This document shows, piece by piece, positions 12,582 through 30,600 of a stretch of DNA of 64,000 bases. The stretch is from Escherichia coli (lineage in GTDB: Bacteria > Pseudomonadota > Gammaproteobacteria > Enterobacterales > Enterobacteriaceae). Location: NCBI RefSeq assembly GCF_024223415.1, contig NZ_CP100500.1; one strand, 5' to 3'. Under the pieces are notes generated by a model. That model searched no databases. It saw only the letters and a list, made by a program, of their open reading frames with translations, and was not told where the DNA came from. Made by a program: the position numbers and the translations under genes. The stretch's first letter is position 1; the number at the start of each line of letters is the position of its first letter.

Positions 12582-14041
12582 TGAAAAAATTACTGCGTCT
12601 TTTTTTCCCGCTCTCGCTGCGGGTACGTTTTCTGTTGGCAACGGCAGCGGTAGTACTGGTGCTTTCGCTTGCCTACGGAATGGTCGCGCTGATCGGTTAT
12701 AGCGTCAGTTTCGATAAAACTACGTTTCGGCTGTTACGTGGCGAGAGCAATCTGTTCTATACCCTTGCGAAGTGGGAAAACAATAAGTTGCATGTCGAGT
12801 TACCCGAAAATATCGACAAGCAAAGCCCCACCATGACGCTAATTTATGATGAGAACGGGCAGCTTTTATGGGCGCAACGTGACGTGCCCTGGCTGATGAA
12901 GATGATCCAGCCTGACTGGCTGAAATCGAATGGTTTTCATGAAATTGAAGCGGATGTTAACGATACCAGCCTCTTGCTGAGTGGAGATCATTCAATACAG
13001 CAACAGTTGCAGGAAGTGCGGGAAGATGATGACGACGCGGAGATGACCCACTCGGTGGCGGTAAACGTCTACCCGGCAACATCGCGGATGCCAAAGTTAA
13101 CCATTGTGGTGGTGGATACCATTCCGGTGGAGCTAAAAAGTTCCTATATGGTCTGGAGCTGGTTTATCTATGTGCTCTCAGCCAATCTGCTGTTAGTGAT
13201 CCCGCTGCTGTGGGTCGCCGCCTGGTGGAGTTTACGCCCCATCGAAGCCCTGGCAAAAGAAGTCCGCGAACTGGAAGAACATAACCGCGAATTGCTCAAT
13301 CCAGCCACAACGCGAGAACTGACCAGTCTGGTACGAAACCTGAACCGATTGTTAAAAAGCGAACGCGAACGTTACGACAAATACCGTACAACGCTCACCG
13401 ACCTGACCCATAGTCTGAAAACGCCACTGGCGGTGCTGCAAAGTACGCTGCGTTCTCTGCGTAGTGAAAAGATGAGCGTCAGTGATGCTGAACCGGTAAT
13501 GCTGGAGCAAATCAGCCGCATTTCACAGCAAATTGGCTACTACCTGCATCGTGCCAGTATGCGCGGCGGGACATTGCTCAGCCGCGAGCTGCATCCGGTC
13601 GCCCCACTGCTGGACAATCTCACCTCGGCGCTGAACAAAGTGTATCAACGCAAAGGGGTCAATATCTCTCTCGATATTTCGCCAGAGATCAGCTTTGTCG
13701 GTGAGCAGAACGATTTTGTCGAGGTGATGGGCAATGTGCTGGATAATGCCTGTAAATATTGCCTCGAGTTTGTCGAAATTTCTGCAAGGCAAACCGACGA
13801 GCATCTCTATATTGTGGTCGAGGATGATGGACCCGGTATTCCATTAAGCAAGCGAGAGGTCATTTTCGACCGTGGTCAACGGGTTGATACTTTACGCCCT
13901 GGGCAAGGTGTGGGGCTGGCGGTAGCCCGCGAAATCACCGAGCAATATGAGGGTAAAATCGTCGCCGGAGAGAGCATGCTGGGCGGTGCGCGGATGGAGG
14001 TGATTTTTGGTCGCCAGCATTCTGCGCCGAAAGATGAATAA
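12581..14041 (+). CDS. phoQ: Sensor histidine kinase PhoQ
   Basis: 486 aa; start overlaps phoP stop (ATGA); TM-periplasmic-HAMP-HisKA-ATPase layout. Confidence 0.95.
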
Positions 14042-14049
14042 ATATGTCC
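14039..14049. repeat. Left copy of short direct repeat taaatatgtcc overlapping the phoQ stop codon; candidate attL core
   Basis: 10-bp perfect match aaatatgtcc with 29402-29411 (13/15 over tgaataaatatgtcc vs tgataaaatatgtcc). Confidence 0.5.
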
Positions 14050-14121
14050 TTTTATCACCGATATTAGTTAATATATTGATTTAATTAAAAATATACACAA
14101 ACAAAAGTGCCAAAAATCGCA

Positions 14122-14147
14122 AATTAACTACACCATTAACTACACCG
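14122..14147. repeat. Inner 26-bp direct repeat aattaactacaccattaactacaccg, left copy (two tandem 13-mers); alternative att core
   Basis: Exact 26/26 match to 29252-29277; followed on both sides by similar phased repeat arrays. Confidence 0.8.
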
Positions 14148-14163
14148 TTCGGCGCACTGTATG

Positions 14164-14189
14164 AAACAACGTGGAACAAATAGGCACAA
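14164..14189 (+). promoter_or_regulatory. 10-bp-phased NNACAA direct repeats (AAACAA, GAACAA, GCACAA); putative recombinase/RDF or regulator binding array
   Basis: Motifs start at 14164, 14174, 14184; same family as arrays at 21838, 27909 and 29284. Confidence 0.4.
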
Positions 14190-14366
14190 GAAATATAAAG
14201 GCGGGTAATTTTAAGGGGGCGTTGCTGTCGATATGGGGATCCACATAACGGGGCTACCTGGCTTTTTTTCCGGTTAAATGTCAATCAGGCTGGTGGGCTT
14301 TACCTGTTCGGTAGGTGTTATGATTATCGTAATACCTTTCCCCCAATGGGGTAAAAGCATCAACCG

Positions 14367-14911: not shown

Positions 14912-14987
14912 CAGGATACAACGCCGCCTGTAATCGTAACCAATTGATTTTTATGATGACGCAAATCTGCGTTATCAGTCCTCAAAG

Positions 14988-17276: not shown

Positions 17277-17321
17277 GTTCTTTTTTCGCCCAATTATTTT
17301 CAAAAAAATTCCCGTGCACAA

Positions 17322-17565
17322 AAATTTGAGCAGGCGGTCGGTTCTGGGCAGGGTCGGGTTCGTCCTGAAAACTCCCCCCCACCCCGTCCGGCTGCCTCAT
17401 CAGCGATTGCGAAAACATTCCATGACCTCGCGGTCACGGTCGGTTAATCGCTTCGCTGTGGTGCGTTTTGTGCGCCCTGTCCTGTTGGCTTTGTGCTCTG
17501 TCTCCTGTGTCTTCCATGTGTCACGCTGCCTTATCAGTCCACGTATCAGCCTGGTTTGCTCCTGT
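17322..17565. other. Candidate cos/packaging site in the HNH-terS intergenic gap
   Basis: 244-bp noncoding gap with G-rich and C-rich tracts (ggcggtcggttctgggcagggtcggg, actcccccccacccc) at the position where HK97-like cos sites lie. Confidence 0.3.
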
Positions 17566-18006
17566 TCAGTCATCATCGCCATACATCCAGTCGTTACGGT
17601 GTGCCGCCCGTTCTTCCTGCTCGCGATACATGCCCGCTTTACGGTTTGCTTTCGTGGCTGGATCTTCCCGTGTGGTCTTACGGTTGTGGCACGTCTGGCA
17701 CAATGCCTGGTGATTCCACTCAGGCCAGAAGAGAACATCATTACCGCCATCGATGGGGATAATGTGATCCACCACCACGGCGGGCGTGTATATTCCTTTT
17801 TCCAGGCAATGCGCACATAACGGGTTTTTACTCAGGTACATAGCGCGGTATTTCTCCCACTGCCTCGTATACCCTCGCTCCCTGCTGCTGCCTCTCCGGC
17901 TGTCCTGCTGCTGGCGTGCGCTGCGTCTGTGCTCCTCACACTTCCCGGACTTCACGCGCCTGTTGCAGCCTGGTTGTGTGCATCGTCTCAATGGTTGCCA
18001 CGGCAT
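17566..18006 (-). CDS. HNH endonuclease (packaging-associated)
   Basis: 146 aa with Cys-His motif (CAHCLEKG...DHIIPIDGGND...ALCQTCHNRKT); sits next to terS as in HK97-like cos phages. Confidence 0.75.
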   Translation of the reverse strand: MPWQPLRRCTQPGCNRRVKSGKCEEHRRSARQQQDSRRGSSRERGYTRQWEKYRAMYLSKNPLCAHCLEKGIYTPAVVVDHIIPIDGGNDVLFWPEWNHQALCQTCHNRKTTREDPATKANRKAGMYREQEERAAHRNDWMYGDDD

Positions 18007-18302
18007 CAGTACACCCCCACATCACGATAAACCGACCAGAGCGCGGAAATCGTCAGGGGAATTTCTTTTGTATCGGTATCGCCAAGCGTTGTCCGGTACT
18101 CGTACAGTTGCGAGATGTACATCAGGCAACCAATTTTTATTGCAGGGGTAAATTCCAGGCCGTCATCAAAACGCCTGCCAATATGCTTCTGGCATACCTC
18201 CAGCGCCGCGCTTATGTATGCCTGAATCAGTGTGTCTTCTGTGTTACCATCTATGCGGCAGTGAAGTTTGGCCTCTTCCAGGGTTATTTTTTCTGCTGTC
18301 AT
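18006..18302 (-). CDS. Head-tail connector protein (gp6-like)
   Basis: 98 aa, MTAEKITLEEAKLHCRIDGNTEDTLIQAYISAALE... typical of phage gp6-like connectors. Confidence 0.55.
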   Translation of the reverse strand: MTAEKITLEEAKLHCRIDGNTEDTLIQAYISAALEVCQKHIGRRFDDGLEFTPAIKIGCLMYISQLYEYRTTLGDTDTKEIPLTISALWSVYRDVGVY

Positions 18303-18637
18303 TTTTCTGTACCCACCTTTGCCAGAATTTCCAGCCGGGTTCTTTTCGCATCAGGTAAGGGGATCCCGATGATATTAAGCGTGCTCCCGGCAAAAGCGCC
18401 GGTAAGCACTTTCAGGCGACTGGCGGCGGATATGTCGCCACGATAGCGAACCCATACCCGAATCGTTGCAGGTGCGGTTTCTGCGCCTGCGGTCAGTAAT
18501 TCCCGTCCGCTGATCCCCTTGACCTCTGCCCAGATGGTTTCCCCTTCCGTCCATATCTGCTGGATCGCACCTGACGGCAGGCGCTGTGTGGTAAATGTCA
18601 TAATCGTCACCCGGTCCCGCATCTTTCCGGCTATCAT
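18299..18637 (-). CDS. Head closure / head-tail adaptor protein
   Basis: 112 aa; size and position (after portal, before HNH) fit the head-tail joining family. Confidence 0.5.
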   Translation of the reverse strand: MIAGKMRDRVTIMTFTTQRLPSGAIQQIWTEGETIWAEVKGISGRELLTAGAETAPATIRVWVRYRGDISAASRLKVLTGAFAGSTLNIIGIPLPDAKRTRLEILAKVGTEK

Positions 18638-19851
18638 TCGTCACCGCCCTTACTGTTCTTGCTGATTGTCACTTCCTGCTTCCATGCCTGGCTGAACTCG
18701 TCGCCACCTTCACGCGGCGGCATTCCCTCACGCTCACGGGCTTCGTTCGGATTGATGATCCCGTTCTTAATCCCTTTCTCATACGTGGCGTAACGTTCGG
18801 TAGGGGTGGCGCGTAATAAATCGGCTGAATCAAACTCAACCAGATAACGGGTACCAGGTACGGGAGAAGCCACCAGCAAAGCAGCCTTGATTTGCTGTTC
18901 GAAGTTCGCCAGCCACGGGCGCATTGTCATGGTCAGAAACGCGCGGCTTGCCTCACTGAAATTGCTGTAGGTGCTGTTGCTGTATTCCTGCAAAAAAATC
19001 GGCGAGACGTTGAACATTCGGGCGATGTCTTCAATGGTAAAGCGACGGGAGGCCAGCCATTCAGCATCCTGATTACTCATGCCCAGCTGCTGATAGCTCA
19101 TACCCCCTTCAAGGATGGGCGTTTTTCCGGCGTTTCTGGCCCCTTTGTAGCGTTCCAGTGCGGCTAATGCCTGTTTGCCCTTCACGCCGTCCAGCCATTC
19201 GCCTGACGTGATAACCCCTGCCGCCATCATGCCATCACGCATCACGCTCGCGCCGTGGCGTTGTTGGGCCAGCCCAAGCCCCAGCGATTCGCGGCAGATG
19301 GTTACAGGTGAGCGCCCCATAAAGCCGTCATCCGTGGAGTAACGAAGGTGGAGAACCTCCCACGGTAAATAGTTGCGGGTGTTTCCGGTGTAGGCGTCAG
19401 TGATGCAGTAGCGCCAGTTATGCTCACCTGTCTGCTCCACGTTCACCGACTGCGGCGGGTAAGGATGTAAAGCCACCGGAAAACCATCACGCCCCCACTG
19501 AATAACCGCATAAGCATTACCGTTTAACAGGCAGTGGCGGATCATCATTCGCTTAAACTGGTAGGGGGTTTGCCATGCGTTCGGGCGCTCGTTGAGGATG
19601 TGATCGACCGGATGAGAATCAAGCCACTCGCGGGCCTCCTTCCCCTTCTCATTGCGTACCAGGTACAGGTAACACGGCATGGTAGCCACCGCCTCAGAGA
19701 TGACCGTCACGGCGTTCATGACGGCGGGCAGTGATTCCGCTGTCCCCGATGATACGTACTCACCCGCCCCCGTGTTCGATGTGCCCGCCAGCGCCATAAA
19801 TTCATCAAGCGTCATGCTGCGCTGCTCTTTTTTTCTTCTGAAAAGCCACAT
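18634..19851 (-). CDS. Portal protein (HK97 family-like)
   Basis: 405 aa; position between protease and connectors; composition typical of HK97-type portal. Confidence 0.8.
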   Translation of the reverse strand: MWLFRRKKEQRSMTLDEFMALAGTSNTGAGEYVSSGTAESLPAVMNAVTVISEAVATMPCYLYLVRNEKGKEAREWLDSHPVDHILNERPNAWQTPYQFKRMMIRHCLLNGNAYAVIQWGRDGFPVALHPYPPQSVNVEQTGEHNWRYCITDAYTGNTRNYLPWEVLHLRYSTDDGFMGRSPVTICRESLGLGLAQQRHGASVMRDGMMAAGVITSGEWLDGVKGKQALAALERYKGARNAGKTPILEGGMSYQQLGMSNQDAEWLASRRFTIEDIARMFNVSPIFLQEYSNSTYSNFSEASRAFLTMTMRPWLANFEQQIKAALLVASPVPGTRYLVEFDSADLLRATPTERYATYEKGIKNGIINPNEAREREGMPPREGGDEFSQAWKQEVTISKNSKGGDE

Positions 19852-19852
19852 A

Positions 19853-20425
19853 TCACACCCCCGCTAAATCCACCCACCAGCGGCGATTATCCGCACGCGG
19901 CATTTTTTCGGGGTGCTGCTCATACAGGGAACGGCGGGCCAGCTCCACGCCGGAATCGGGGTAAGCCGGTACCGATGTAACGGTAATTTCGTACAGTTCC
20001 GCCACCAGCACGGTACGAACGCATGGATCTGTTGTGGTATCCCATACATCCTTACGGGAGCGAAAGCCAAAGCTCATGCCGGATATATCACCGCGTTTAA
20101 CCAGTTCGATAACGTCGCGCCCTGTACTGGTATCCGGTGGGGTCAGTTCAAAGCGTAACCCTGTTTCGTCCTCTTCCAGTTTCAGCGTGCCGGAACGGGT
20201 GCGCCCCAGTAACATGCTGTGGTCATGCTCATACAGGCCGCGAACGTCATTACCCGCCGCAAGCCATTCAGTAAACGCCCCCCGCTGGAATTTTTCGTAA
20301 AACTCACCCCATAACAGTTCTGAAAGCTTATCCCAGCGAACAACGTAGCCCGTCAGCGTACCGGCTCCGCTCGTGGTGATTTCCGATGACCGGATTTCCA
20401 TACTCTTCATAATTTTTTCACCCAT
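19853..20425 (-). CDS. Prohead maturation protease (HK97 gp4-like)
   Basis: 190 aa immediately downstream of the capsid gene. Confidence 0.75.
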   Translation of the reverse strand: MGEKIMKSMEIRSSEITTSGAGTLTGYVVRWDKLSELLWGEFYEKFQRGAFTEWLAAGNDVRGLYEHDHSMLLGRTRSGTLKLEEDETGLRFELTPPDTSTGRDVIELVKRGDISGMSFGFRSRKDVWDTTTDPCVRTVLVAELYEITVTSVPAYPDSGVELARRSLYEQHPEKMPRADNRRWWVDLAGV

Positions 20426-20464
20426 AAAACACTAAAGGGGCTTTTAAGCCCCTTCTGTATGCTG

Positions 20465-21622
20465 TTAATCGTCGTCCTGTGGCAGTTCCAGAATCTTGAT
20501 CGCGTTCGAATCCACCACGCCACCGCCTAAATATTTCTGCGTGAAAATTTTGATGAAGCCCGGCTCTGTGATGTTGTCCGGTCTGGTGCGAACACCTGTT
20601 TCGTGATCAACAATGTAGTAACCGCGTTTGAAGTCACCCAGGGCAATAACGTTATCAGGCATAAACTCCAGATATTCGACCGGAAGGCCCAGCAACGTAT
20701 CAGGATCACCCGCCTGTAAACGGTCGCGCCAGATGTAATCACCGTTCGCGTTCTTCACCTTCTGAAGTTTTGCCGCCGTTGTGGAGTTAACCACCCATAC
20801 CGCGTTCTTGCGGTATTTTTTACGCAATGCAAATTTCAGGTCGATCAGCGGGTCCGCAGATGTCCACGCCAGACCGTGAGCGGGCTTGATAACCTGCAAC
20901 GTTCCGAAGTCGCGTTCTTTGTCGCTCTTCTCTGCACGGGGGACGGATAAAAAGCCTTTTGCTTTTTTGTCACCGTCGCCCACAACCAGATCGCTTTCTT
21001 CGGTTTCCGTGAAGGTGTCGCCAATCTCGGCCGTCAGCCATGAAAGGATGTCCACATCGGAAAAATCCACGATTTCCTGTGTGGTGCGCGGGTACGCATA
21101 GACCGGATACAGCTTAATGCTCACCTCGTTAATCTGCGGGGTGCTGGTCTGTTCGCGTGCCTTACCCTCTTCACCGTGGTTAACGGTCGCACCGCCAGCG
21201 GAAACAAGCTGCTTAAACTCGTTGCTGCTGATTTTCTTCACGGTACAGATGCGGCGCATGGTGGATTCATCCGCCAGCATTCGCATGATTTCGGTGTTCA
21301 GTTCGGGGATAACGGTATAACCACCATCAGCGGGAACGCCTGTACTTAATGCGCGGGTTTCACCTGTCAGAATGTAGTTGCGTAGTTCTGCGGGGTCAGT
21401 GGTCTGACTGCTTTTACCTGGCTTGCTGCGCTCTTCGTCTGCAATGGCTTCAAGGCGGGAAATGTCTTTATCGAGGGATTCAGCTTTAGCGCGTAATTCA
21501 TCAAATTTTGCGCCCTCAGCATCGTTAAGACTGCGGTTTTCTTTTTCCGCGTTCTCCAGCATGTCGCGCATCTGATTTTTAATGGCGGTTTTCTGCTGGC
21601 GTAATTCGATTATTCTCGGCAT
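20465..21622 (-). CDS. Major capsid protein, HK97 fold, with N-terminal coiled-coil scaffold (delta) domain
   Basis: ATG at 21622 gives MPRIIELRQQKTAIKNQMRDMLENAE... (delta domain) then capsid body; the longer ORF to 21667 would read through a terminator hairpin. Confidence 0.85.
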   Translation of the reverse strand: MPRIIELRQQKTAIKNQMRDMLENAEKENRSLNDAEGAKFDELRAKAESLDKDISRLEAIADEERSKPGKSSQTTDPAELRNYILTGETRALSTGVPADGGYTVIPELNTEIMRMLADESTMRRICTVKKISSNEFKQLVSAGGATVNHGEEGKAREQTSTPQINEVSIKLYPVYAYPRTTQEIVDFSDVDILSWLTAEIGDTFTETEESDLVVGDGDKKAKGFLSVPRAEKSDKERDFGTLQVIKPAHGLAWTSADPLIDLKFALRKKYRKNAVWVVNSTTAAKLQKVKNANGDYIWRDRLQAGDPDTLLGLPVEYLEFMPDNVIALGDFKRGYYIVDHETGVRTRPDNITEPGFIKIFTQKYLGGGVVDSNAIKILELPQDDD

Positions 21623-21660
21623 AAAAAAAAGTCCTGGGGTTAAGTAAGGAACTCCAGGAC
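21623..21660 (-). terminator. Intrinsic terminator on the minus strand directly abutting the capsid start codon
   Basis: Minus strand reads gtcctgg-(16 nt)-ccaggac followed by TTTTTTTT, then ATG of the capsid gene. Confidence 0.45.
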
Positions 21661-21837
21661 GCGGCAAAAACTCAACCGTTTTTCATAAGGAAATCAGCAA
21701 TCGCACCGATCGTTTTCCCGCCTGGTAATGAATATTGGCGAGCACATTAACAGGCGGGAAAGTGGCCCCAGCGTCCTGGCACCACGGGCGAGAATAATCA
21801 TGATTCAGTTCGAGTAAAATATGCCGATCCGCTCAGT

Positions 21838-21896
21838 GAACAACCTGGAACAACCACGAACAAATAATTTACAAAACCTGAAAAAATAAATAAACT
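21838..21896 (+). promoter_or_regulatory. Promoter of the 157-aa gene with phased upstream repeats: GAACAA x3 at 10-bp spacing, then -35 TTTACA, 17-bp spacer, -10 TAAACT
   Basis: GAACAA at 21838, 21848, 21858; TTTACA 21868-21873; TAAACT 21891-21896; AGGAGG SD at 21924 and ATG at 21938. Confidence 0.45.
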
Positions 21897-21937
21897 GTTC
21901 CGTACATTTTCTGCTCGTTAATCAGGAGGAACGAACT

Positions 21938-22411
21938 ATGTCAGAAAATGAACTGAAAAAAGCAATGTTCATTCAGCAACGATTGCAGATTCTCCACCTT
22001 GGTAAACACTATGATGAGTTCAGTGATTCTTACGTGTATGCCTGGGAGGCAGATGTTTATCCTTTCTTGCAGGATGGCGACGGAAGTATTCCTGCTCGCC
22101 CACATGAAATTTACGAAGAGTTTTTCGGCACATCTAAAAACAAAGCCAAAAAGATATACGATCGTCTGTGCAAAGCCTGGCACGACCAGGAGGCACTCAC
22201 ATTCTATAAACTAGAAAGTGAATATGGTGTAACAAGTAGCAGCATGCACAGATGGACACGAAGTGATTTACTTCACATCTGCCGCTATCTGTATCTTGAG
22301 GGGTGTTTCGATAAAGATTTCTGGGAAACATTACTGGAAAACGGAAAATGCCCAAGCGAAGCACTTTACCTTAGCGATGAATTTAATCGCGATACAGAGA
22401 TCGACTTCTAA
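21938..22411 (+). CDS. Hypothetical protein (157 aa), stand-alone opposite-strand cargo gene
   Basis: Strong SD and promoter, own bidirectional terminator; only plus-strand gene inside the structural/regulatory part of the island; no recognisable domain. Confidence 0.65.
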   Translation: MSENELKKAMFIQQRLQILHLGKHYDEFSDSYVYAWEADVYPFLQDGDGSIPARPHEIYEEFFGTSKNKAKKIYDRLCKAWHDQEALTFYKLESEYGVTSSSMHRWTRSDLLHICRYLYLEGCFDKDFWETLLENGKCPSEALYLSDEFNRDTEIDF

Positions 22412-22448
22412 AAAAATGGCCTGGAAAATACCAGGCCATTATTATTCT
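22411..22448. terminator. Bidirectional intrinsic terminator between convergent genes
   Basis: atggcctgg-aaaata-ccaggccat flanked by an A-run on one side and T-rich sequence on the other. Confidence 0.55.
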
Positions 22449-22695
22449 ACCGTTTCACGGGATCACGCATTCTGCGCCTTATTTTCCACAGATATTCGAT
22501 CATCGCTTCCACCTGCTCACGGTTGGTTGCGAAAATTTCCCCGGTCAGTGAGCTACGCAGAAAATCATGATGATCCACAAAAAATAACGCATCGGAAGAA
22601 AGCAGCCGGAGATATTTTTTTGCTGTCGTGCTTTCCAGATCATCAAAATCATGAAGCTTTTTATGTTGCTGGACTTCTTCAAATGTCACTGGCAT
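22447..22695 (-). CDS. Hypothetical protein (about 82 aa)
   Basis: Internal ATG (MPVTFEEVQQHKKLHDF...) downstream of the PerC-like gene. Confidence 0.45.
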   Translation of the reverse strand: MPVTFEEVQQHKKLHDFDDLESTTAKKYLRLLSSDALFFVDHHDFLRSSLTGEIFATNREQVEAMIEYLWKIRRRMRDPVKR

Positions 22696-22740
22696 GTTTC
22701 CTCCTGCTACCACGATACCAGAAACAGTTAACAACCGTTA

Positions 22741-23022
22741 TCAATTATCCCCTTTTTTAGGGTAGTTCCTGAACATCTCACCGCCAGGCTTCTGTAAGCC
22801 CATCCCGGTATGTGTGCGGTTTATGGCCTCTTTCAGTATTCCGAAATTATCCGGTATGACTGGTGGGCGTGCTGCCTTACGGATACATTCCGCGCGACGC
22901 TTTGCCACTTGTTCGCGCTCCTTGTCAGTGCTCACCAGCCACATAACATCAGCCCATCGCGCGGCCGCCCTCCGGTAAAATCCTTTCGCCTCCAGTTCCT
23001 CCGCTATCCGGTCATGTACCAT
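22741..23022 (-). CDS. PerC-family-like transcriptional regulator (tentative)
   Basis: About 93 aa from internal ATG: MVHDRIAEELEAKGFYRRAAARWADVMW...; the EAxGxxRRAAxxW motif resembles PerC-type activators. Confidence 0.4.
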   Translation of the reverse strand: MVHDRIAEELEAKGFYRRAAARWADVMWLVSTDKEREQVAKRRAECIRKAARPPVIPDNFGILKEAINRTHTGMGLQKPGGEMFRNYPKKGDN

Positions 23023-23032
23023 CGTCACCCCC

Positions 23033-23443
23033 TCAGAACGGAATATCATCACCGTAAGGGTCATCGCCTCCCGCTGGTGGCTGATTACCCTGTGTGCCTG
23101 TGGTTTTGCGTCTGTTCCCACCAGGACGTGCCGCACGCGCACTGATTACGCTGTCTGCGATAACCTGCCAGCCCTGCCGCGTTTCCCCGTTCTGTCCGGT
23201 CCACTGGCTGACCTGCATCGTGCCGGATACGCTGGCAACGTCGCCTTTTTGATGTTTAGCCAGAAAGTCGGCCTGTTTGCCAAATGCGATGACCGATAAC
23301 CATAACGTCGCCTGTCCGTCCTGTGCCTGGCCGCATGGTAAAGATACCGCCATACGCGCCAGCGTCATCGGTGTACCCTTACTGGTCTGTTTTACCTGCG
23401 GGTCGTCCACCAGCCGCCCGTAAGCTGCAATTTGTGCTGTCAT
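23033..23443 (-). CDS. ssb: Single-stranded DNA-binding protein
   Basis: 136 aa with OB-fold-like core and acidic C-terminal tail ending DDIPF. Confidence 0.85.
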   Translation of the reverse strand: MTAQIAAYGRLVDDPQVKQTSKGTPMTLARMAVSLPCGQAQDGQATLWLSVIAFGKQADFLAKHQKGDVASVSGTMQVSQWTGQNGETRQGWQVIADSVISARAARPGGNRRKTTGTQGNQPPAGGDDPYGDDIPF

Positions 23444-23452
23444 ATTGCCACC

Positions 23453-23758
23453 TCAGTGAAGCGATCCGGCGTTGTTCTTTTTCATCTCTTCCATCATTTT
23501 TTCAGTGAGCATTACGCACTGAAAACCCATGTTTTTGATGTCTACGGGTTTCATGCCTTTGTCAGTGGATATCACAGGCAGAATATCCTGATACACATCG
23601 CCGCCAGGGTAACTAAGCACACAAAGCGCCCATGATGCCACGGGTGAGGATCCTTGGTCTGTTTCAACCCACCAGCCTGGTGTAGCTGCGCTTATTTGCA
23701 GAATCGTGATCCGTCCGTTGTGCTTGTAAAATTTTTCACCACATTTTGGTTCGCTCAT
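23453..23758 (-). CDS. Hypothetical protein (101 aa)
   Basis: ORF in operon context between ssb and the ori region. Confidence 0.4.
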   Translation of the reverse strand: MSEPKCGEKFYKHNGRITILQISAATPGWWVETDQGSSPVASWALCVLSYPGGDVYQDILPVISTDKGMKPVDIKNMGFQCVMLTEKMMEEMKKNNAGSLH

Positions 23759-24006
23759 GCTTCCACCTCTCCGGTTTTAACGTTGATGGTTGTCACCTGT
23801 TCCGCTCCGGCAATCTCCCGTTCTGTCAGCGTGGCAAAATTTGCCGCTACCGTTGTCATGAATGCGCTTATCAGTTCGGGATGTGCTTTCGCGTATCCTT
23901 CTCCCGCGTGGCGGTCTATCGTTCTGATTGCCACCTTTAAGGCGTGCTCTGTCATGTCTAACGCTTTATATTTTGGCGCTGTCTTATCTCTGGTTTTTCT
24001 GTTCAT
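23755..24006 (-). CDS. Hypothetical protein (start uncertain)
   Basis: ORF 23755-24036 trimmed to an internal ATG because its 5' end runs into the iteron array. Confidence 0.3.
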   Translation of the reverse strand: MNRKTRDKTAPKYKALDMTEHALKVAIRTIDRHAGEGYAKAHPELISAFMTTVAANFATLTEREIAGAEQVTTINVKTGEVEA

Positions 24007-24225
24007 TCCCCACCACTCCCCACTTTTGCTCCCCACTTTTTAAATTCCCCACTTGCTCCCCACCTCGTTTTTTGAGTGAATCTAATGCTTTGTTTTTCAT
24101 TGCGTTTTTTGCTCCCCACTTTTTTGGATGTATACAGGTGGGAAAGTGGGGAATTATGTTTCAATTTTGTTAAATTCCCCACTCTCCCCACTTTTACTAC
24201 CCACTTTTTACAGTGGGTAAACATC
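24005..24225. repeat. Iteron array (at least 8 copies of tccccactttt-like units in both orientations around an AT-rich core); putative replication origin
   Basis: Repeats ctccccactttt, gctccccacttttt, attccccact and inverted gtgggaaagtgggg, immediately 3' of the primase/helicase gene. Confidence 0.6.
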
Positions 24226-25614
24226 ATCCCCATCGACACAAATCACGCCGTCTTTTTCCAGCTTGTACAGCCAGCGCCGGAAGTGCTTCATCTCATACCC
24301 CAGCTTTTTCATATCGTCGCGGAGAAGGGCGATAGTGCATGGCTCTTTGTGTGCCGTCCGCGTTCTGATGCACTGCCATAGCGCGGCGTGATTCTCCGAT
24401 TTGTTGCCTGCTTCCTCGATGCGCTCCAGTTCAGCAGGGGCGCGGGGAACGTCAATCACCACCATAGACACAATCTCTTCGCCATCTGTATCGGTGAACA
24501 CCTCCACGCTTTTAAGGTCGTATGCACTCTCTTTTGGCTCCTCTGCGTCCTTCATCTTCGTACACGCCGCCACCAGTGCTGTAACGTCTGAATTTTCCCG
24601 GCTGATTCGGTACTCTGCATCAAGCGCGGCACGGAATGCGCTGGAACCACGCGCCCCCTTTGTTTCATCCTTGCCGGAATGGTGAACCACCAGCACCGTG
24701 GCCCCTGTGGCCTGCTTTATCGCGTCACACCCCTGGATAAATGCGCCCATATCACGGGAATCATTTTCATCATTCCCACCAAAGCAACGGGCCAGTGTGT
24801 CGATCACAATCAGCCGCACATTTTCGCCCGTTCTGCTCTTAACAAGTCCGGCAGTCCTGATAACCTGCTCCACATAGTCAGGCGATGCAGGGAAAACAGG
24901 CGCGTTAATGATGCACAAATCTGTAACCACCTTGTCGTGGGTTATCTCCCACGCCTTAACGCGGCGTTTTACGCCCATGCTGCCTTCACCAGCGATATAG
25001 ATAACCGCCCCCTTACTTACCCTGCGGCCTCCCCATGCCATACCTGTGGCAACATGGCACGACCAGGAAATGGCGAGGAACGATTTATAAGAACCGCTGG
25101 CCCCGTAGGTGCTGCATAATGACTCAGCCGGAATAAGCCCCTTAATTACGTAGCTTTGCTGCGCGTCGAATCCCTCAGAACCCCATGAGATGGGAAGCGT
25201 GATTTTTCGCTTTCCGCCATTCATGACCAGGCTTTCCCCTCTCTCCCATGTTTCCCGTAGTCGTGGTAGCTGGTCGCTCCAGTCCTCCAGCAGTTCGAAA
25301 TTTTCAGAAAGTAGCCGCGCCTCCTGGACTCCGGCGATCGCCAGTTTTGTGGCAATGGTCAGCATCTGCATATCGTCCAGGTTTCCGGCGCGTATGACCT
25401 TTGCCCTGTATCGTCCTTCATCAACAATCTGTAAGTTGTCCAGTTCGCTTAACTGATAACGGCCCAGGTAAACCGGAGGGATGGGATCGCCTGCTTTTTT
25501 GGCCTGTGCAATCATGTAATGTTCTGCAAAGGAGTGAGCATTATCACCCGCAAAAATAACCGCCTCAGTGTGTTTATCTTTCGGTAACAGTTTTACGTTC
25601 GGTGCAAGTTTCAT
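24208..25614 (-). CDS. Replication protein: primase-like N-terminus plus RecA/DnaB-like AAA ATPase (pri-rep)
   Basis: 468 aa; Walker A-like IYIAGEGSMGVKRR and Walker B-like LIVIDTLARCFG, C-terminal winged-helix-like tail. Confidence 0.75.
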   Translation of the reverse strand: MKLAPNVKLLPKDKHTEAVIFAGDNAHSFAEHYMIAQAKKAGDPIPPVYLGRYQLSELDNLQIVDEGRYRAKVIRAGNLDDMQMLTIATKLAIAGVQEARLLSENFELLEDWSDQLPRLRETWERGESLVMNGGKRKITLPISWGSEGFDAQQSYVIKGLIPAESLCSTYGASGSYKSFLAISWSCHVATGMAWGGRRVSKGAVIYIAGEGSMGVKRRVKAWEITHDKVVTDLCIINAPVFPASPDYVEQVIRTAGLVKSRTGENVRLIVIDTLARCFGGNDENDSRDMGAFIQGCDAIKQATGATVLVVHHSGKDETKGARGSSAFRAALDAEYRISRENSDVTALVAACTKMKDAEEPKESAYDLKSVEVFTDTDGEEIVSMVVIDVPRAPAELERIEEAGNKSENHAALWQCIRTRTAHKEPCTIALLRDDMKKLGYEMKHFRRWLYKLEKDGVICVDGDDVYPL

Positions 25615-25898
25615 TTCTTACCCCCTGCGACCAGCATTTCACGGATTTTGCGGATATAACTTGCAGCACGTTTCTGATTAACGGCTTTACGATGGCCCAC
25701 CAGCGTGAAATCACGCCGGAACTGATAAACAGGCATAACGCAGTCATATTCGTAGCCTTCACGGCGGTAAGTTACGCGACGTTCCTCCACGCTTTTAATT
25801 GTTACCGTGCCGCCGTAGTTATCTTTGAAAATATCGCCGGGGCGGATTTCAGGCCGAGCGGGGCCGCTGGCAGTAAAGCCAGAATATTTAAGTTTCAT
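25611..25898 (-). CDS. Hypothetical protein (95 aa)
   Basis: Stop overlaps the pri-rep start; basic protein. Confidence 0.4.
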   Translation of the reverse strand: MKLKYSGFTASGPARPEIRPGDIFKDNYGGTVTIKSVEERRVTYRREGYEYDCVMPVYQFRRDFTLVGHRKAVNQKRAASYIRKIREMLVAGGKK

Positions 25899-25903
25899 TA
25901 TTT

Positions 25904-26137
25904 TTATTCTCCGGTGTGCTGTTCTTTATATCTGTCGTGCAATAGGTCTATTTCCTGCAACTCTGTTATTACAGGTTCAAGGAGAGTTATCAGAGATTTA
26001 ATAATCCGCGCATTCTTTACATCACGCTCATTATCGCCAAATGTATCTGGATACATTTGCAATATTTCGTACATACCTTCAGCGTAAGCAATGGCACTAA
26101 ATGCGCGGTCTATTGTTTCGAGGTAAATATCACGCAT
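25904..26137 (-). CDS. Hypothetical protein (77 aa)
   Basis: Compactly spaced ORF in the same operon. Confidence 0.4.
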   Translation of the reverse strand: MRDIYLETIDRAFSAIAYAEGMYEILQMYPDTFGDNERDVKNARIIKSLITLLEPVITELQEIDLLHDRYKEQHTGE

Positions 26138-26138
26138 A

Positions 26139-26387
26139 TTAATCCCCGTCCGTCGTTTTTCTTAAAATAACCTCTGTCACGAAATCAGCATAATCGGCGG
26201 CGATATTCAGTACATCAAGCCCCGTTGATTTATATTCTCTCGTGGAAAGTAAGAAAAAAGCCGCTCTAATAAGCTCTGGCATTGACGAAAGCGCATCAGC
26301 CGCATCATCAGGAACGCCGGAAAATTCCTGTTTCAGGGAATTAAAACGATCATCACGCATAACCCCCCCCATTTTCACAATCAGCAA
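26139..26387 (-). CDS. Hypothetical protein (82 aa)
   Basis: Compactly spaced ORF in the same operon. Confidence 0.35.
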   Translation of the reverse strand: MLIVKMGGVMRDDRFNSLKQEFSGVPDDAADALSSMPELIRAAFFLLSTREYKSTGLDVLNIAADYADFVTEVILRKTTDGD

Positions 26388-26634
26388 TCAGGATGGCTTT
26401 GGCCTCATTCAGTGCCATATCAGCGGTAAGCTGTGCGTAGGCCAGCAAATGCGGGATTATTGCCCCTGTATATTCCGTCTCTCTGGTAATGTGTTTTTCT
26501 GCGGTTGCTGCCGTGCATGAAATATCAATCAGCGCGTGCATCAGCGTTTTGATGGCTTCGGCGGCTGCGTCCGGACGGGTGTTATTGCACATGGCACACC
26601 TCCTGACGGATACGGGCGGCGAATACAGCGACAC
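26353..26634 (-). CDS. Hypothetical protein (start uncertain)
   Basis: ORF overlapping its neighbours; probable start at an internal ATG. Confidence 0.3.
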   Translation of the reverse strand: MSLYSPPVSVRRCAMCNNTRPDAAAEAIKTLMHALIDISCTAATAEKHITRETEYTGAIIPHLLAYAQLTADMALNEAKAILIADCENGGGYA

Positions 26635-26780
26635 AACCGGACGGGCAACGGTTACGCGCTTCGCGTTCCGTCCAGGCGGTCACGTGGATAATTTGAGATT
26701 CTCCGGCACTCAGTGCCAGAAAACGCCACACAAAGGCGGTTTGTGTGTGCGCTAGTCGTGGGGTATGCTGTGTTCCAGCC
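26582..26780 (-). CDS. Hypothetical small protein (about 66 aa), first gene of the leftward early operon
   Basis: C-terminal part of spurious 267-aa ORF, from ATG near 26780: MAGTQHTPRLAHTQTAFVWRF...; divergent from the RHH gene. Confidence 0.35.
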
Positions 26781-26867
26781 ATAATCGTTACTCCTGTTAA
26801 CGGTTTGGTTAGACGCCCTGCATGTGTTACAGCACTGCGGGGCGTTGTCTTTTTAACGGCTTTCGTG

Positions 26868-26917
26868 ATAGGGTGTACACCTATCAAGCAAAAAAATAAC
26901 GCTATAGGTGTACACAT
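26868..26917. promoter_or_regulatory. Two operator-like palindromes centred on GTGTACAC in the divergent regulatory region
   Basis: atagggtgtacacctat (26868-26884) and tataggtgtacacat (26903-26917); the second overlaps the RHH start codon. Confidence 0.45.
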
Positions 26918-27110
26918 GTCAACAGTTATTAAGCGAGATAAAAAACCAAAGGGAACAGGAAAAGCCCCCCCATTCCATATGCGAATAGCTCCAGAACTGA
27001 AAGAGCAGTTTGATAATGAGGCCAGCAATGATGGGGTAAGCCTAGCCAACTGGCTTAAAGAGTTGGGACGCAGTGAACTGAAGCGGCGCGGTATAGAACC
27101 CAAAGGTTGA
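26916..27110 (+). CDS. Ribbon-helix-helix (Arc/MetJ-like) DNA-binding protein; candidate island repressor
   Basis: About 64 aa from internal ATG: MSTVIKRDKKPKGTGKAPPFHMRIAPELKEQFDNEASNDGVSLANWLKELG; only regulator on the plus strand, divergent from the early operon. Confidence 0.5.
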   Translation: MSTVIKRDKKPKGTGKAPPFHMRIAPELKEQFDNEASNDGVSLANWLKELGRSELKRRGIEPKG

Positions 27111-27143
27111 TAGCCCACCAGCAAGCCAGGACACTGATCACAT

Positions 27144-27171
27144 TGGCCACCGTGACAGGTGGCCTTTTCTT
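27144..27171 (+). terminator. Intrinsic terminator after the RHH gene
   Basis: ggccacc-gtgaca-ggtggcc followed by ttttcttt. Confidence 0.5.
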
Positions 27172-27437
27172 TGCCCGTTATCCGGCAATTGTGGCGCTTC
27201 GCCACACGGTTGATATAATCCCACTGCTCATATTCATTTTTTGCGCAGCAGGTAAATTGTTCAGAAAGGCGGCTCCTTATCGGGGCCGCTTTTTTTATGC
27301 CTGAAAAACCGCGATTTTGTTGTTTTTCAGTTTCACAAGGCCGAACGAAGCCCCGCCCCTGTTCCGGCGTATATCCAGTCTTCATGGTTAAATCTCTGTA
27401 TTAGTGGATGGGTGGCGGCTGTGTGCCGCCAGTCTTT

Positions 27438-27626
27438 TTAGTGAACTGCCTCGCAGCTTTCCTTCCATGCCAGAACTTCGGATAAAGACCAGCCAACGGA
27501 ACGACCGCCCAGCTTACGCCGTGATGGGAATTGTCCGGCCTTTTCCAGGCGGTAGCGGCATGAGCGGCTAAGCCCTGTTAGCTTTTCGCATTCTTTTTCA
27601 CGTATAAAACGATCAGTGCTTAACAC
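27438..27626 (-). CDS. alpA: AlpA-family phage transcriptional regulator / excisionase-like
   Basis: 62 aa, LTGLSRSCRYRLEKAGQFPSRRKLGGRSVGWSLSEVLAW matches the AlpA/Xis HTH pattern; adjacent to int. Confidence 0.75.
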   Translation of the reverse strand: MLSTDRFIREKECEKLTGLSRSCRYRLEKAGQFPSRRKLGGRSVGWSLSEVLAWKESCEAVH

Positions 27627-27908
27627 TATTGCCCCCTTTCGTTTCTTAAAGAGTTATTTCGTGTTCTATTGCGTTGGTATGTGTCTGATTGTGTCAGGGT
27701 GATTCAGAGTTGGCAAATGTTGATGGCGGGTATTTTACAGAAACGGGGTGATTTTAATAAAAAACATTTTAATTCAGTATTATGCAAAGGCATAAAATCT
27801 CGTTTCATGCCTTTTTTCTCACTATTTAAAGCGTTATTCGCTAATGTATAAAAAACCAGTTGAGCATTAAAAATCAGCAACTTATAAATCTGTATATTTT
27901 TTGGCCTC

Positions 27909-27954
27909 TTGTTCGTGGTTGTTTCACGTTGTTGCGTATTGTTGCACGTTGTAT
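27909..27954 (-). promoter_or_regulatory. Five 10-bp-phased direct repeats (TTGTT on plus strand = AACAA on minus) between int and alpA
   Basis: TTGT motifs start at 27909, 27919, 27929, 27939, 27949. Confidence 0.5.
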
Positions 27955-28000
27955 CTGTGCACTTATCCAGTATGCGCATACTGAAAAAACACGAAAAAAA

Positions 28001-29248
28001 TTATTTTCTTCTGGCTACTGGTAGCGTGGTTACGTTTTCATGTGCTCCCGCCAGTATCTCCAACCGCTCCACCCACATATCCAGCGCATTGCGTTTCGCA
28101 TCCAGATAACGGGAATGATTATAAACTCGCTGCATTCCTGGCATCTGGTGGCCTGTAAGCTGCTCCACGACATGCGGATCAACGCCTAAATCGTTCAGCA
28201 TGGTTGTAAAGGTGCGCCGGATGTCATGCAGTGACCAGTGAGGGTGTTTAAGCCTCCTGTGCACTAATCTGCCGTACTGCGACACGCTGGTTTCCTGTTT
28301 CACTTCCCCCAGCAATAAGTCCGTGTGCCTGTTCTGCTCCACCAGCTGCGTGACGAACGGCAGTATCGCTTCCGGTATGGGCCGGAATATGGCTACCTTC
28401 GTTTTGCTGTGCTCCTTCGGAACGGTCCAGAGCATTTCGGTAAAATCCCACTCGCCGATCTCCGATAACCTCAGTTCTACTGTCCTGCATCCGAAGACAA
28501 TCAGGAGGCGGATTAGTGCGACGTAGTAAGGGGAAAATATTTTTTTGTCCAGTGCCTGCAATAATTCGCCAAGTTCTTTGTTACTTAAGACACGCTGACT
28601 TATATCCGGTTTTTTCCCAACGTCAGCCACACTCATATCATCAAGAACGTTGCTGATTGCATAGCGCCGCTTCCGGCAGAACTTAAGCGCCTGTTTGCAT
28701 GTCTGTAGCAGGAACCCGGCGGAAACAGGGGCTTGCTTTGCCACCCGATCAAAACAGGCCAGCCAGTGCCGTAGCTCGCATTTATCCAGCGGCATAGGGC
28801 CAATGTGCTGTATTACGTGATTATTTAGCCGCTTTTTCAGTGGGTCATAATCCACACGGTTTTCCTTTGCGTACGACTCAAGCCAGTAGGTGAGCGCATC
28901 GCCAACCGTTACAGGCTTTAACGCTTCCTGTACGGTGTAATTCATCTCATGACGTGGATTTTTCCCCTCAGCCAGCCATGCGCGACACTGGGCGGCTTTT
29001 TCCCTGGCTGATTTCAGGCTCAGATCAGGATAATTTCCCAGCTTAATGCGTTCCGGTGGTGCGCCCCTTCCCGTTCCGGCCCTGTAAGTGAAATACCAGG
29101 TTAAAAGGCCGCTGGTTGAATGCCTGACGGTCAGGTTTCCACCGTCATTAAGAAAGGCTGTTTTTTGGGCGGGTGTGCCGTTGATTTTCCTTAGCTGTGT
29201 ATCACTCAGTTTGTTAAGTGCTCTGCGCATAATTTTGATTCCGGTCAT
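28001..29248 (-). CDS. int: Tyrosine-type site-specific integrase (P4-like)
   Basis: About 415 aa; N-terminal arm-binding-like region, catalytic HDIRRTF...HQMPGMQRVYNHSRY; start codon (GTG 29251 or ATG 29248/29230) abuts the 26-bp repeat. Confidence 0.9.
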   Translation of the reverse strand: MTGIKIMRRALNKLSDTQLRKINGTPAQKTAFLNDGGNLTVRHSTSGLLTWYFTYRAGTGRGAPPERIKLGNYPDLSLKSAREKAAQCRAWLAEGKNPRHEMNYTVQEALKPVTVGDALTYWLESYAKENRVDYDPLKKRLNNHVIQHIGPMPLDKCELRHWLACFDRVAKQAPVSAGFLLQTCKQALKFCRKRRYAISNVLDDMSVADVGKKPDISQRVLSNKELGELLQALDKKIFSPYYVALIRLLIVFGCRTVELRLSEIGEWDFTEMLWTVPKEHSKTKVAIFRPIPEAILPFVTQLVEQNRHTDLLLGEVKQETSVSQYGRLVHRRLKHPHWSLHDIRRTFTTMLNDLGVDPHVVEQLTGHQMPGMQRVYNHSRYLDAKRNALDMWVERLEILAGAHENVTTLPVARRK

Positions 29249-29251
29249 CAC

Positions 29252-29277
29252 AATTAACTACACCATTAACTACACCG
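29252..29277. repeat. Inner 26-bp direct repeat, right copy
   Basis: Exact match to 14122-14147. Confidence 0.8.
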
Positions 29278-29283
29278 ATCGTT

Positions 29284-29319
29284 GCACAAAGGGCTACAAC
29301 GTGAAACAAGCTGGAACAA
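29284..29319 (+). promoter_or_regulatory. 10-bp-phased NNACAA repeats (GCACAA, CTACAA, AAACAA, GAACAA) upstream of int on the opposite strand
   Basis: Motifs start at 29284, 29294, 29304, 29314; homologous to the array at 14164-14189. Confidence 0.4.
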
Positions 29320-29399
29320 GAAAAATCACAAATTTGTTTATAATCAAAAACATAATGCACAATCTGAAACATTATGAAACGGCAAAAAACACTAATTGA

Positions 29400-29411
29400 T
29401 AAAATATGTCC
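29400..29411. repeat. Right copy of short direct repeat taaaatatgtcc; candidate attR core
   Basis: Matches the sequence at the phoQ stop codon (14039-14049). Confidence 0.5.
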
Positions 29412-29478
29412 ATACTTCACGCATTACGTTAAGCATCCGTTATAATCGGTTGCAGATACCAGCCTGTGGATGCTTAAC

Positions 29479-30600
29479 ATGGAATACCAACTCACTCTTA
29501 ACTGGCCCGATTTTCTTGAACGTCACTGGCAGAAACGCCCGGTGGTGTTAAAACGCGGCTTTAATAATTTTATTGACCCGATCTCTCCAGACGAGTTGGC
29601 GGGTCTGGCGATGGAAAGCGAAGTCGACAGTCGACTGGTCAGTCACCAGGATGGCAAATGGCAGGTCAGCCACGGTCCGTTCGAAAGCTACGATCATCTC
29701 GGTGAAACCAACTGGTCATTACTGGTACAGGCAGTGAACCACTGGCATGAGCCGACCGCCGCGCTGATGCGACCGTTCCGTGAACTACCGGACTGGCGTA
29801 TTGATGATCTGATGATCTCTTTTTCTGTACCTGGCGGCGGCGTCGGCCCGCATCTCGATCAGTACGACGTGTTTATCATTCAGGGTACCGGACGTCGTCG
29901 CTGGCGAGTGGGCGAAAAGCTGCAAATGAAACAGCACTGTCCGCACCCTGATCTGTTACAGGTCGATCCGTTCGAAGCCATCATCGATGAAGAGCTGGAG
30001 CCTGGCGATATTCTTTATATTCCGCCAGGATTCCCGCATGAAGGCTACGCGCTGGAAAATGCGATGAACTATTCCGTGGGTTTTCGCGCGCCAAATACGC
30101 GGGAATTAATTAGCGGATTTGCCGATTATGTGCTGCAACGTGAACTGGGCGGCAACTACTACAGCGATCCGGATGTTCCACCTCGCGCTCATCCTGCGGA
30201 CGTTCTGCCGCAAGAGATGGATAAACTGCGTGAGATGATGCTCGAATTGATCAACCAGCCGGAACACTTTAAGCAATGGTTTGGCGAGTTTATATCCCAG
30301 TCACGTCATGAACTGGATATCGCTCCGCCAGAGCCGCCTTATCAGCCGGATGAAATCTACGATGCGCTGAAACAAGGTGATGTGCTGGTGCGCCTGGGTG
30401 GTCTGCGCGTATTGCGCATTGGCGACGACGTGTATGCCAATGGTGAGAAGATCGATTCCCCGCACCGTCCGGCACTGGATGCACTCGCCAGCAACATTGC
30501 GCTGACTGCGGAGAATTTTGGCGATGCGCTGGAAGATCCGTCATTCCTCGCGATGCTCGCGGCGCTGGTCAATAGCGGGTATTGGTTCTTCGAAGGGTAA
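29479..30600 (+). CDS. roxA: Ribosomal protein uL16 arginine hydroxylase RoxA (YcfD), cupin/JmjC-like
   Basis: 373 aa from internal ATG, MEYQLTLNWPDFLERHWQKRP... Confidence 0.9.
   Translation: MEYQLTLNWPDFLERHWQKRPVVLKRGFNNFIDPISPDELAGLAMESEVDSRLVSHQDGKWQVSHGPFESYDHLGETNWSLLVQAVNHWHEPTAALMRPFRELPDWRIDDLMISFSVPGGGVGPHLDQYDVFIIQGTGRRRWRVGEKLQMKQHCPHPDLLQVDPFEAIIDEELEPGDILYIPPGFPHEGYALENAMNYSVGFRAPNTRELISGFADYVLQRELGGNYYSDPDVPPRAHPADVLPQEMDKLREMMLELINQPEHFKQWFGEFISQSRHELDIAPPEPPYQPDEIYDALKQGDVLVRLGGLRVLRIGDDVYANGEKIDSPHRPALDALASNIALTAENFGDALEDPSFLAMLAALVNSGYWFFEG

Follow-up and report, generated by a model that had tools for sequence, protein, structure and literature searches.

The int-side attachment arm of a capsid-forming phage-inducible chromosomal island inserted between phoQ and roxA in Escherichia coli

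In the 64,000-nucleotide stretch of Escherichia coli DNA analyzed here (the window; contig NZ_CP100500.1 of assembly GCF_024223415.1), an island is inserted between phoQ and roxA (ycfD), with its integrase gene, int, at the edge that faces roxA. We find that the DNA between int and the attachment core next to roxA is the int-side attachment arm of a known family of phage-inducible chromosomal islands (PICIs), and that it has the layout of a classical attP arm. As a whole, the explanation that we favor, a PICI attachment arm with the int promoter inside it, appears likely. The island is a capsid-forming PICI (cf-PICI) of the EcCIEDL933 type, an assignment based upon its gene content, size and attC site, and it has its Int and att site in common with EcCICFT073. 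Our starting point was an original prediction for positions 29252-29478, in which the start of int was thought to abut a 26-bp repeat and the promoter to lie in the terminal module of the element. The underlying observation is real, and its interpretation was reasonable, but it took the wrong start codon for int, and the repeat on which it relied is not terminal.

Comparison with empty sites defines the inserted DNA as 14050-29411 (15,362 bp). The insertion lies directly after the phoQ stop codon (14039-14041, + strand), with roxA on the other side of the island. In the empty site of the K-12 type, which reads GATGAATAAATATGCCCATACTTCACG, and in that of strain GF131, which reads GAATAAATATGTCCATACTTCGCG and contains the exact island core, 14049 is joined to 29412. 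The 10-bp sequence AAATATGTCC, found at 14040 and again at 29402, is the reverse complement of GGACATATTT, the attC core published for PICIs at ycfD-phoQ (Fillol-Salom et al. 2018, Table S1). Most of 5,426 complete E. coli genomes are island-free here, and in these the phoQ flank matched only up to 14049; the phoQ-side junction (through 14050-14121) was found in 576 genomes and the int-roxA junction in 543, and the site is occupied in about 10% of the set. Among island-free strains the attB core is itself polymorphic, being AAATATGCCC in K-12-type genomes and AAATATGTCC in GF131, and only the latter matches the island core exactly (14040-14049 versus 1692-1701 / 591-600 of the compared loci). 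The ends of the element are therefore the 10-bp cores, and the 26-bp repeats, which had been taken for an end feature of the element, are subterminal: the left one starts 72 bp inside the phoQ-side core and the right one 150 bp inside the roxA-side core. A longer, 75-nt version of the repeat ends, on the int side, 75 bp short of the roxA-side core.

The same arm accompanies related elements at other chromosomal sites. We compared elements inserted at tqsA, yifB (two elements), smrA-abgR and cspD (two elements). Over 29200-29405, identity to the window is 85-88% at tqsA, yifB and smrA-abgR, with one yifB element at 79%, while the cspD-site pair is more distant (about 75%) and keeps the layout. 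Similarity ends exactly at the core, beyond which the chromosomal flanks are unrelated. Thus, the 171 bp that separate int from the core belong to the island. The relative at smrA-abgR in strain STEC383 (locus 15200-18250) is decayed, with int cut down to its arm-binding domain and most genes lost; both of its arm modules, with the repeat pairs and phased arrays described below, are intact.

These comparisons bear on the possibility that the 26-bp repeats are themselves the att repeats that mark the ends, with int flush against one of them from GTG 29251 or ATG 29248, and with 29278-29411 and 14050-14121 being chromosomal DNA or the remnant of an older element. Among exact direct repeats that flank the gene set, the 26-bp sequence is the longest, the int open reading frame (ORF) is open up to 29251, and the original annotation of EDL933 took the corresponding 416-amino-acid form of Int. 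Yet empty sites lack both segments altogether, and relatives at four other attB sites carry them; it is the outer 10-bp repeat that was published as the core, and the genome counts of the two junctions agree. We give this idea close to no credence, and it is already contradicted by the present data.

The start codon of int also needs correction. The minus-strand ORF (28001..29251) comprises 416 codons and does reach the GTG at 29251, with an ATG at 29248, as the original prediction had it. However, the conserved start is ATG 29230, and neither GTG 29251 nor ATG 29248: in 8 of 8 annotated relatives, the NCBI annotation pipeline (PGAP) calls the start at the counterpart of ATG 29230. The start codon is GTG in the tqsA and ETEC4077 (yifB) elements, where it is preceded by GGGGG or GGAGG, a good Shine-Dalgarno sequence, and where the 21 nt upstream are unrelated to those of the window. 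The tqsA element has an in-frame TAA two codons upstream of its start, and the upstream ATG of the cspD elements is in another reading frame. Thus, 29231-29251 is a leader, and int does not strictly abut the repeat. Both forms of Int have been annotated, 416 amino acids in EDL933 and 409 in Sakai. The protein matches Arm-DNA-bind_3 (PF13356, E = 6.6e-18), from residue 15 of the long ORF, and Phage_integrase (PF00589, E = 5e-17). Int is modular: over residues 1-95 the tqsA element and one yifB element share 97% identity, while residues 96-200 track the attB site (99% between the two yifB elements, 76% versus tqsA). From the sequences, this pattern indicates recombination between the arm-binding and core-binding parts.

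Beyond the leader, the arm is built from repeats. The exact 26-bp direct repeat AATTAACTACACCATTAACTACACCG occurs at 14122-14147 and 29252-29277, and extends to 75 nt at 79% identity. Each copy holds a pair of ACTACACC motifs, and each pair is followed by three to four ACAA units spaced 10 bp. On the int side, ACAA at 29286, 29296, 29306 and 29316 are exactly 10 bp apart, which bears out the phased array noted earlier at 29284-29319; the three-unit 10-bp ACAA pattern has 7 matches in the 64-kb window versus 0.00 expected. The pattern ACTACACC-N4-ACTACACC occurs exactly twice per element-bearing locus, once in each arm, and is absent from two empty-site loci. Four of the six ACTACACC copies in the window lie in the arms, and the pairs in both arms are invariant in 8 related elements. 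An A/T-rich stretch of 75 bp separates the repeat module from the core in the int-side arm. The far, phoQ-side arm mirrors this layout at a like distance from its core, and its own layout recurs in seven related elements. Matches to the IHF consensus WATCAANNNNTTR lie in both arms, in the DNA that separates the modules from the core, and comprise one perfect site (14081-14069) and two with one mismatch, against about 0.5 expected per arm, and are to be read as consensus matches only. Searches with Rfam and ARAGORN found no structured RNA or tRNA in 29200-29480.

When the circular form is reconstructed, the order becomes int, 21 nt, one module (two ACTACACC plus ACAA array), 75 bp, core, 72 bp and the second module (two ACTACACC plus ACAA array). 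The core would thereby be flanked by both modules, and the arrangement, judged from its sequence, is typical of the attP of an arm-site integrase of the lambda or P4 type. It agrees with the behavior of EcCICFT073, in which an int-attP plasmid integrates and an int-attL plasmid does not. The ACTACACC motif is the predicted binding site of the N-terminal arm-binding domain of Int. We also considered whether the 4-nt spacer of the pair (ATTA versus AGTG in a 12-mer) covaries with this domain. On the int side the spacer does track it, since RM10042 and ETEC4077, 97% identical over residues 1-95, both have GTGAC, which may be simple linkage. The far arm of ETEC4077 deviates, with ATTG/ATTA, so only the invariant ACTACACC can be called as a site.

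Where, then, is int transcribed from? No more than 21 nt separate the start codon from the repeat module, which is too short for a promoter, and all 171 bp from ATG 29230 to the core are conserved arm DNA. The promoter must thus lie in the arm or beyond it. This is the part of the original prediction that holds: its logic of exclusion, which led to the terminal module or a position across the circular junction, survives the change of start codon, though no sigma-70 match stands above background. We place the int promoter inside the arm with moderate confidence, most likely there by analogy with other integrases, and probably in the A/T-rich third. An automated promoter scan gave no int-strand match in the arm. 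A position weight matrix (PWM) scan for sigma-70 promoters, with the mean best score in random 301-bp windows as background (6.9 +/- 1.9), gave TTCATA-18-TATGTT as the best minus-strand match, with a score of 6.5. Its position is conserved in 7 of 9 related arms, these being close relatives of one another. A leaderless or very short-leader int mRNA, initiated from a -10 element inside the ACTACACC pair, was considered and rejected, since the hexamers are weak and the tqsA and ETEC4077 variants have not retained them.

Several observations weigh against a promoter in the int-side arm. No int-strand sigma-70 match exceeds the random-window background, so that the placement is made by exclusion and analogy, and neither an alignment-anchored scan of nine arms nor the reconstructed attP yielded an int promoter above background. 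The TTCATA/TATGTT candidate is missing from the cspD-site elements. In the reconstructed circle, the other arm has slightly better, still unremarkable, matches reading toward int, and no terminator was found in the stretch from the last packaging gene to the phoQ-side end, making junction-crossing transcription possible. In addition, AlpA, the small regulatory protein of these islands, left the activity of a Pint-lacZ fusion unchanged in EcCICFT073; AlpA bound to the arm, if it is so bound, would be no obvious regulator of int.

The int gene could be transcribed from elsewhere in at least two ways. First, int may have no promoter of its own while integrated, and be transcribed mainly after excision, from the phoQ-side arm or by read-through of the packaging operon across attP, with Int serving chiefly for re-integration in a new host. 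The lack of a convincing promoter in the int-proximal arm, the circular-form matches TTGGCA-18-TTTAAT (14113 to 14084) and TTGTGT-19-TATATT that read toward int, the absence of a detected minus-strand terminator between the last gene and the end, and the placement of all island genes on one strand would each fit such a scheme. However, excision requires Int while the island is still integrated; EcCICFT073 excised spontaneously, and its excision after expression of AlpA alone needed int. The other-arm matches are themselves within background, and a promoter-int fusion served as a reporter in EcCICFT073. We therefore regard transcription mainly after excision as distinctly improbable. Second, int could be driven from chromosomal DNA past the core, if a divergent promoter upstream of roxA read into the island. 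Across the junction there is a weak match, TTAACG-18-CATATT (29432 to 29403), but its score of 6.1 is under the random-window mean, and int-attP plasmids work away from the chromosomal context. The arm and int are also joined to unrelated flanks at tqsA, yifB, smrA-abgR and cspD; because the arm is thus found next to five different flanks, a promoter in the flank is unlikely as a general solution, and we consider it very improbable.

Returning to a promoter within the arm, the following scheme would fit the data. Translation of int would begin at ATG 29230, and the promoter would read through the protein-binding sites of the arm. The two ACTACACC sites just outward of the leader may bind the N-terminal arm domain of Int, the four ACAA units, one helical turn apart, may bind an excision/regulatory protein of the AlpA family, and the IHF-like sites, the A/T-rich 75 bp and the core would complete the arm. 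Expression of int would then be weak and negatively autoregulated, as for KplE1 intS and PAI I536 intI; here we infer both the position of the promoter and the autorepression. A promoter-int-lacZ fusion has been built for EcCICFT073.

Phased ACAA arrays are not confined to the arms. Two more, also with 10-bp spacing, lie next to alpA and upstream of the capsid/packaging operon (Table 1). At the alpA-upstream position, arrays of 3-6 units are found in five other elements, and the cf-PICIs of RM10042 and O177:H21 have a homologously placed counterpart of the capsid-operon array. By comparison, more than 150 kb of flanking chromosome from the compared loci contains none. In strain 09-00049, the cspD-site element encodes an AlpA allele of 51% identity, and related CGAAC-type arrays are found both in its arms and upstream of alpA. 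Covariation between AlpA allele and array unit, TG[G/A]AACAA of the window type and CGAACAA of the cspD type, was also considered; it is suggestive, but the overlap is too great for it to be used.

The presence of arrays upstream of alpA and of the capsid operon, the self-activation of AlpA and the phasing of repeats bound by recombination directionality factors (RDFs) suggest that the arrays are best read as putative AlpA boxes. In EcCICFT073, AlpA activates its own promoter region, and expression of AlpA alone triggers int-dependent excision and replication. RDF-type proteins such as Apl, Cox and Vis bind direct repeats one helical turn apart, sometimes at att sites and promoters (PMC7498355). 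We tentatively propose, as a possibility that falls short of an even chance, that the arrays at four places in the island are AlpA operators, and that AlpA, once induced by a helper, would act both as the excision directionality factor and as an activator of alpA and the late genes, coupling excision to packaging. No description of AlpA binding sites in PICIs was found in the literature searched.

Alternatively, the ACAA arrays could be additional arm-type sites for Int, or sites for another island protein, with ACTACACC binding something else. For example, each arm has motifs of both types, whereas the sites of classical RDFs are restricted to a single arm, and AlpA had no effect on Pint-lacZ in EcCICFT073. 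Against this, arrays also lie upstream of alpA, in a region that AlpA activates in EcCICFT073, and of the capsid operon, where no role for Int is expected; the ACTACACC pairs are confined to the two arms; and direct repeats phased at 10 bp are a hallmark of RDF-type winged-helix proteins. We regard this assignment as rather unlikely, and keep AlpA as the candidate ligand of the arrays. If AlpA does bind them, the AlpA regulon of these satellites would be defined, and it would be explained how AlpA alone triggers excision, replication and expression of packaging genes. The sites would then be on both att arms, unlike the one-arm arrangement of lambda, 186 and KplE1.

Table 1. Coordinates of the int-side arm and of associated features (positions in the window)
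Feature	Position	Strand	Description
phoQ-side att core	14040..14049	.	10 bp, AAATATGTCC; overlaps last bases of phoQ stop region; exact repeat of 29402-29411
int-distal (P') arm	14050..14196	+	IHF 14069-14081 (minus); ACTACACC at 14127-14134 and 14139-14146; three ACAA units, 14160-14189
ACAA array, capsid/packaging operon	21834..21863	+	three units, 10 bp; upstream of operon
alpA	27438..27626	-	62 aa, Phage_AlpA family; Pfam PF05930, E = 5e-18; PDB AlpA-family homologue 8c3t
ACAA array near alpA	27909..27958	-	five units, 10 bp; directly downstream of int stop; ~280-330 bp upstream of alpA start
int	28001..29230	-	409-aa tyrosine recombinase with N-terminal arm-DNA-binding domain; ORF open to GTG 29251
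int leader	29231..29251	-	21 nt; weak Shine-Dalgarno GGA at 29242-29240
Right 26-bp repeat	29252..29277	+	two ACTACACC (29257-29264, 29269-29276), 12 bp apart; predicted Int arm-type sites
ACAA array, int-side arm	29280..29319	+	four units, 10-bp spacing; fifth ACAA at 29328-29331; putative AlpA (RDF) sites; conserved at five attB sites
IHF-like sites, int-side arm	29324-29336, 29342-29354	+	each one mismatch from WATCAANNNNTTR; 2 found vs 0.43 expected
Weak candidate int promoter	29349..29378	-	-35 TTCATA (29378-29373), 18-nt spacer, -10 TATGTT (29354-29349); predicted start near 29342
roxA-side att core	29402..29411	.	10 bp, AAATATGTCC; island end; conservation among elements across attB sites stops here
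Native roxA upstream region	29412..29478	+	67 bp; -35 TTCACG 29416-29421, -10 TATAAT 29441-29446; identical in K-12 and CFT073

On the chromosomal side of the core, the start of roxA in relatives and in K-12 is ATG 29479, while the ORF caller begins at the in-frame ATG 29470. The original prediction was right that some 67 bp upstream of roxA remain (29412-29478) and that they contain TATAAT at 29441-29446. TTCACG-19-TATAAT is the best promoter match of the region, with a PWM score of 9.7, at about the 90th percentile for random windows. The -10 element lies between the arms of an 11-bp perfect inverted repeat (29428-29438/29468-29478), also present in K-12, which extends as far as the roxA ATG and whose fold has a predicted energy of -20.9 kcal/mol (z = -2.8). 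A transcript arriving from upstream would have both arms of this hairpin and could bury the roxA ribosome-binding region, and one initiated at the TATAAT promoter would carry the 3' arm only. This arrangement hints, weakly, that roxA is built for independence from upstream transcription.

It had also been suggested that the island cuts roxA off from phoPQ read-through. The island does place 15.4 kb after the phoQ stop, but a dependence of roxA on such read-through finds no support, its own 67-bp region being intact. Because roxA has kept its full upstream region, with no difference from island-free strains, it is probably expressed independently of the island. No report of phoPQ-roxA co-transcription was found in the literature searched, and the only hint of upstream signals is a peak inside phoQ, upstream of ycfD, in a SELEX (systematic evolution of ligands by exponential enrichment) study of RpoS holoenzyme. 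The roxA part of the question matters only if roxA depends on phoPQ read-through, and nothing here supports that.

The genes of the island all lie on one strand, and their order runs in one direction along the minus strand, with int (28001-29230), alpA (27438-27626) and then DUF4222 and a AAA_25/RepA-type helicase (24208-25898). Pfam matches comprise the tyrosine integrase with Arm-DNA-bind_3, AlpA, DUF4222, the AAA_25/RepA-type helicase and PerC and, in the packaging part, an HK97-type Phage_capsid, the prohead protease Peptidase_S78, Phage_portal, two head-tail connectors (Phage_connect_1 and Phage_HCP), HNH, TerS (Terminase_4) and TerL. No tail or lysis families were found by Pfam among the island proteins. 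Over the int-side arm, identity to EcCICFT073 is 98-99%. No complete RefSeq E. coli genome is identical to the window, the best match being 99.0% over 901 bases.

Three further features of the island lie outside the arms. The segment 23997-24210, which follows directly on the RepA-type helicase gene (24208-25614, minus strand), contains three copies of TTTTGCTCCCCACTTTTT, 83-85 bp apart, together with CCCCAC-rich 46-nt repeats; by their sequence, these look like the iterons of the island's replication origin. A near-perfect 21-bp palindrome, ACCTGCGAAAATTTCGCAGGT, lies at 14690-14710 in the non-coding island end, with no T-run after it, and might be connected with a packaging site or a terminator. 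Finally, the stretch of ~800 non-coding bp between the phoQ-side arm and the last island gene contains a sub-threshold Rfam match to the manA RNA motif (14427-14596, minus strand; 21.6 bits versus a gathering score of 55.2, E = 0.057), which is probably due to chance.

The object itself is ordinary, in that the element, its site and the idea of an int promoter within an att arm have all been published. The practical value of this analysis lies in corrections to annotation, namely the true ends of the element and the starts of int (29230) and roxA (29479), and in a map of candidate sites for Int, IHF and AlpA; the PICI family concerned already serves in experiments and is in development as a delivery vehicle. 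No description of the subterminal arm anatomy, with its ACTACACC pairs, ACAA arrays and IHF sites, was found in the PICI literature searched. Of the points raised here, only the putative AlpA-box arrays might be worth testing at the bench.

The closest known systems are EcCIEDL933, the 15.4-kb prototype of capsid-forming PICIs, and EcCICFT073, a classical PICI, for both of which alpA-dependent induction by helper phage and transfer have been shown experimentally. The island described here has in common with them the integration site, ycfD(roxA)-phoQ, and the 10-bp core GGACATATTT. The gene order is also the same (int, alpA, rep, capsid, protease, portal, connectors, HNH, TerS, TerL), and the size is that of EcCIEDL933.

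For the putative AlpA sites, the nearest parallels are Apl of 186, Cox of P2 and Vis of P4, in which a small protein acts on helical-turn repeats at att sites and promoters. AlpA is a distant relative of P4 Vis, and the ACAA arrays are placed likewise, which is consistent with binding by AlpA. Unlike Apl, Cox and Vis, however, PICI AlpA is reported as an activator and not a repressor, and the arrays here are in both att arms, whereas sites of the Apl/Cox/Vis type are in one.

For the control of int, parallels come from two other integrases. The P4-like intI of PAI I536 has an IHF site in its promoter, and this promoter is repressed by the integrase itself (PMC7286903); here too, an island integrase gene has IHF-like sites upstream, although PAI I536 differs from this PICI in island type and target. 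The promoter of intS of KplE1 (CPS-53), like those of most tRNA-associated integrases, overlaps with the att arm, and Int and the RDF both repress it (Panis 2010, PMC2951348). This island differs from KplE1 in that its target is not a tRNA gene and in that an RDF-like alpA lies directly downstream of int on the int strand. In KplE1, moreover, the sigma-70 promoter is near consensus and its start has been mapped; no such promoter is recognizable here. In other respects the likeness to this class of self-regulated integrases is close: int is at the element's edge, its 5' end directed toward att, its sole upstream DNA is an att arm with what appear to be Int arm-type and RDF sites, and the 171 bp from int to the core fit the intergenic length of the class.

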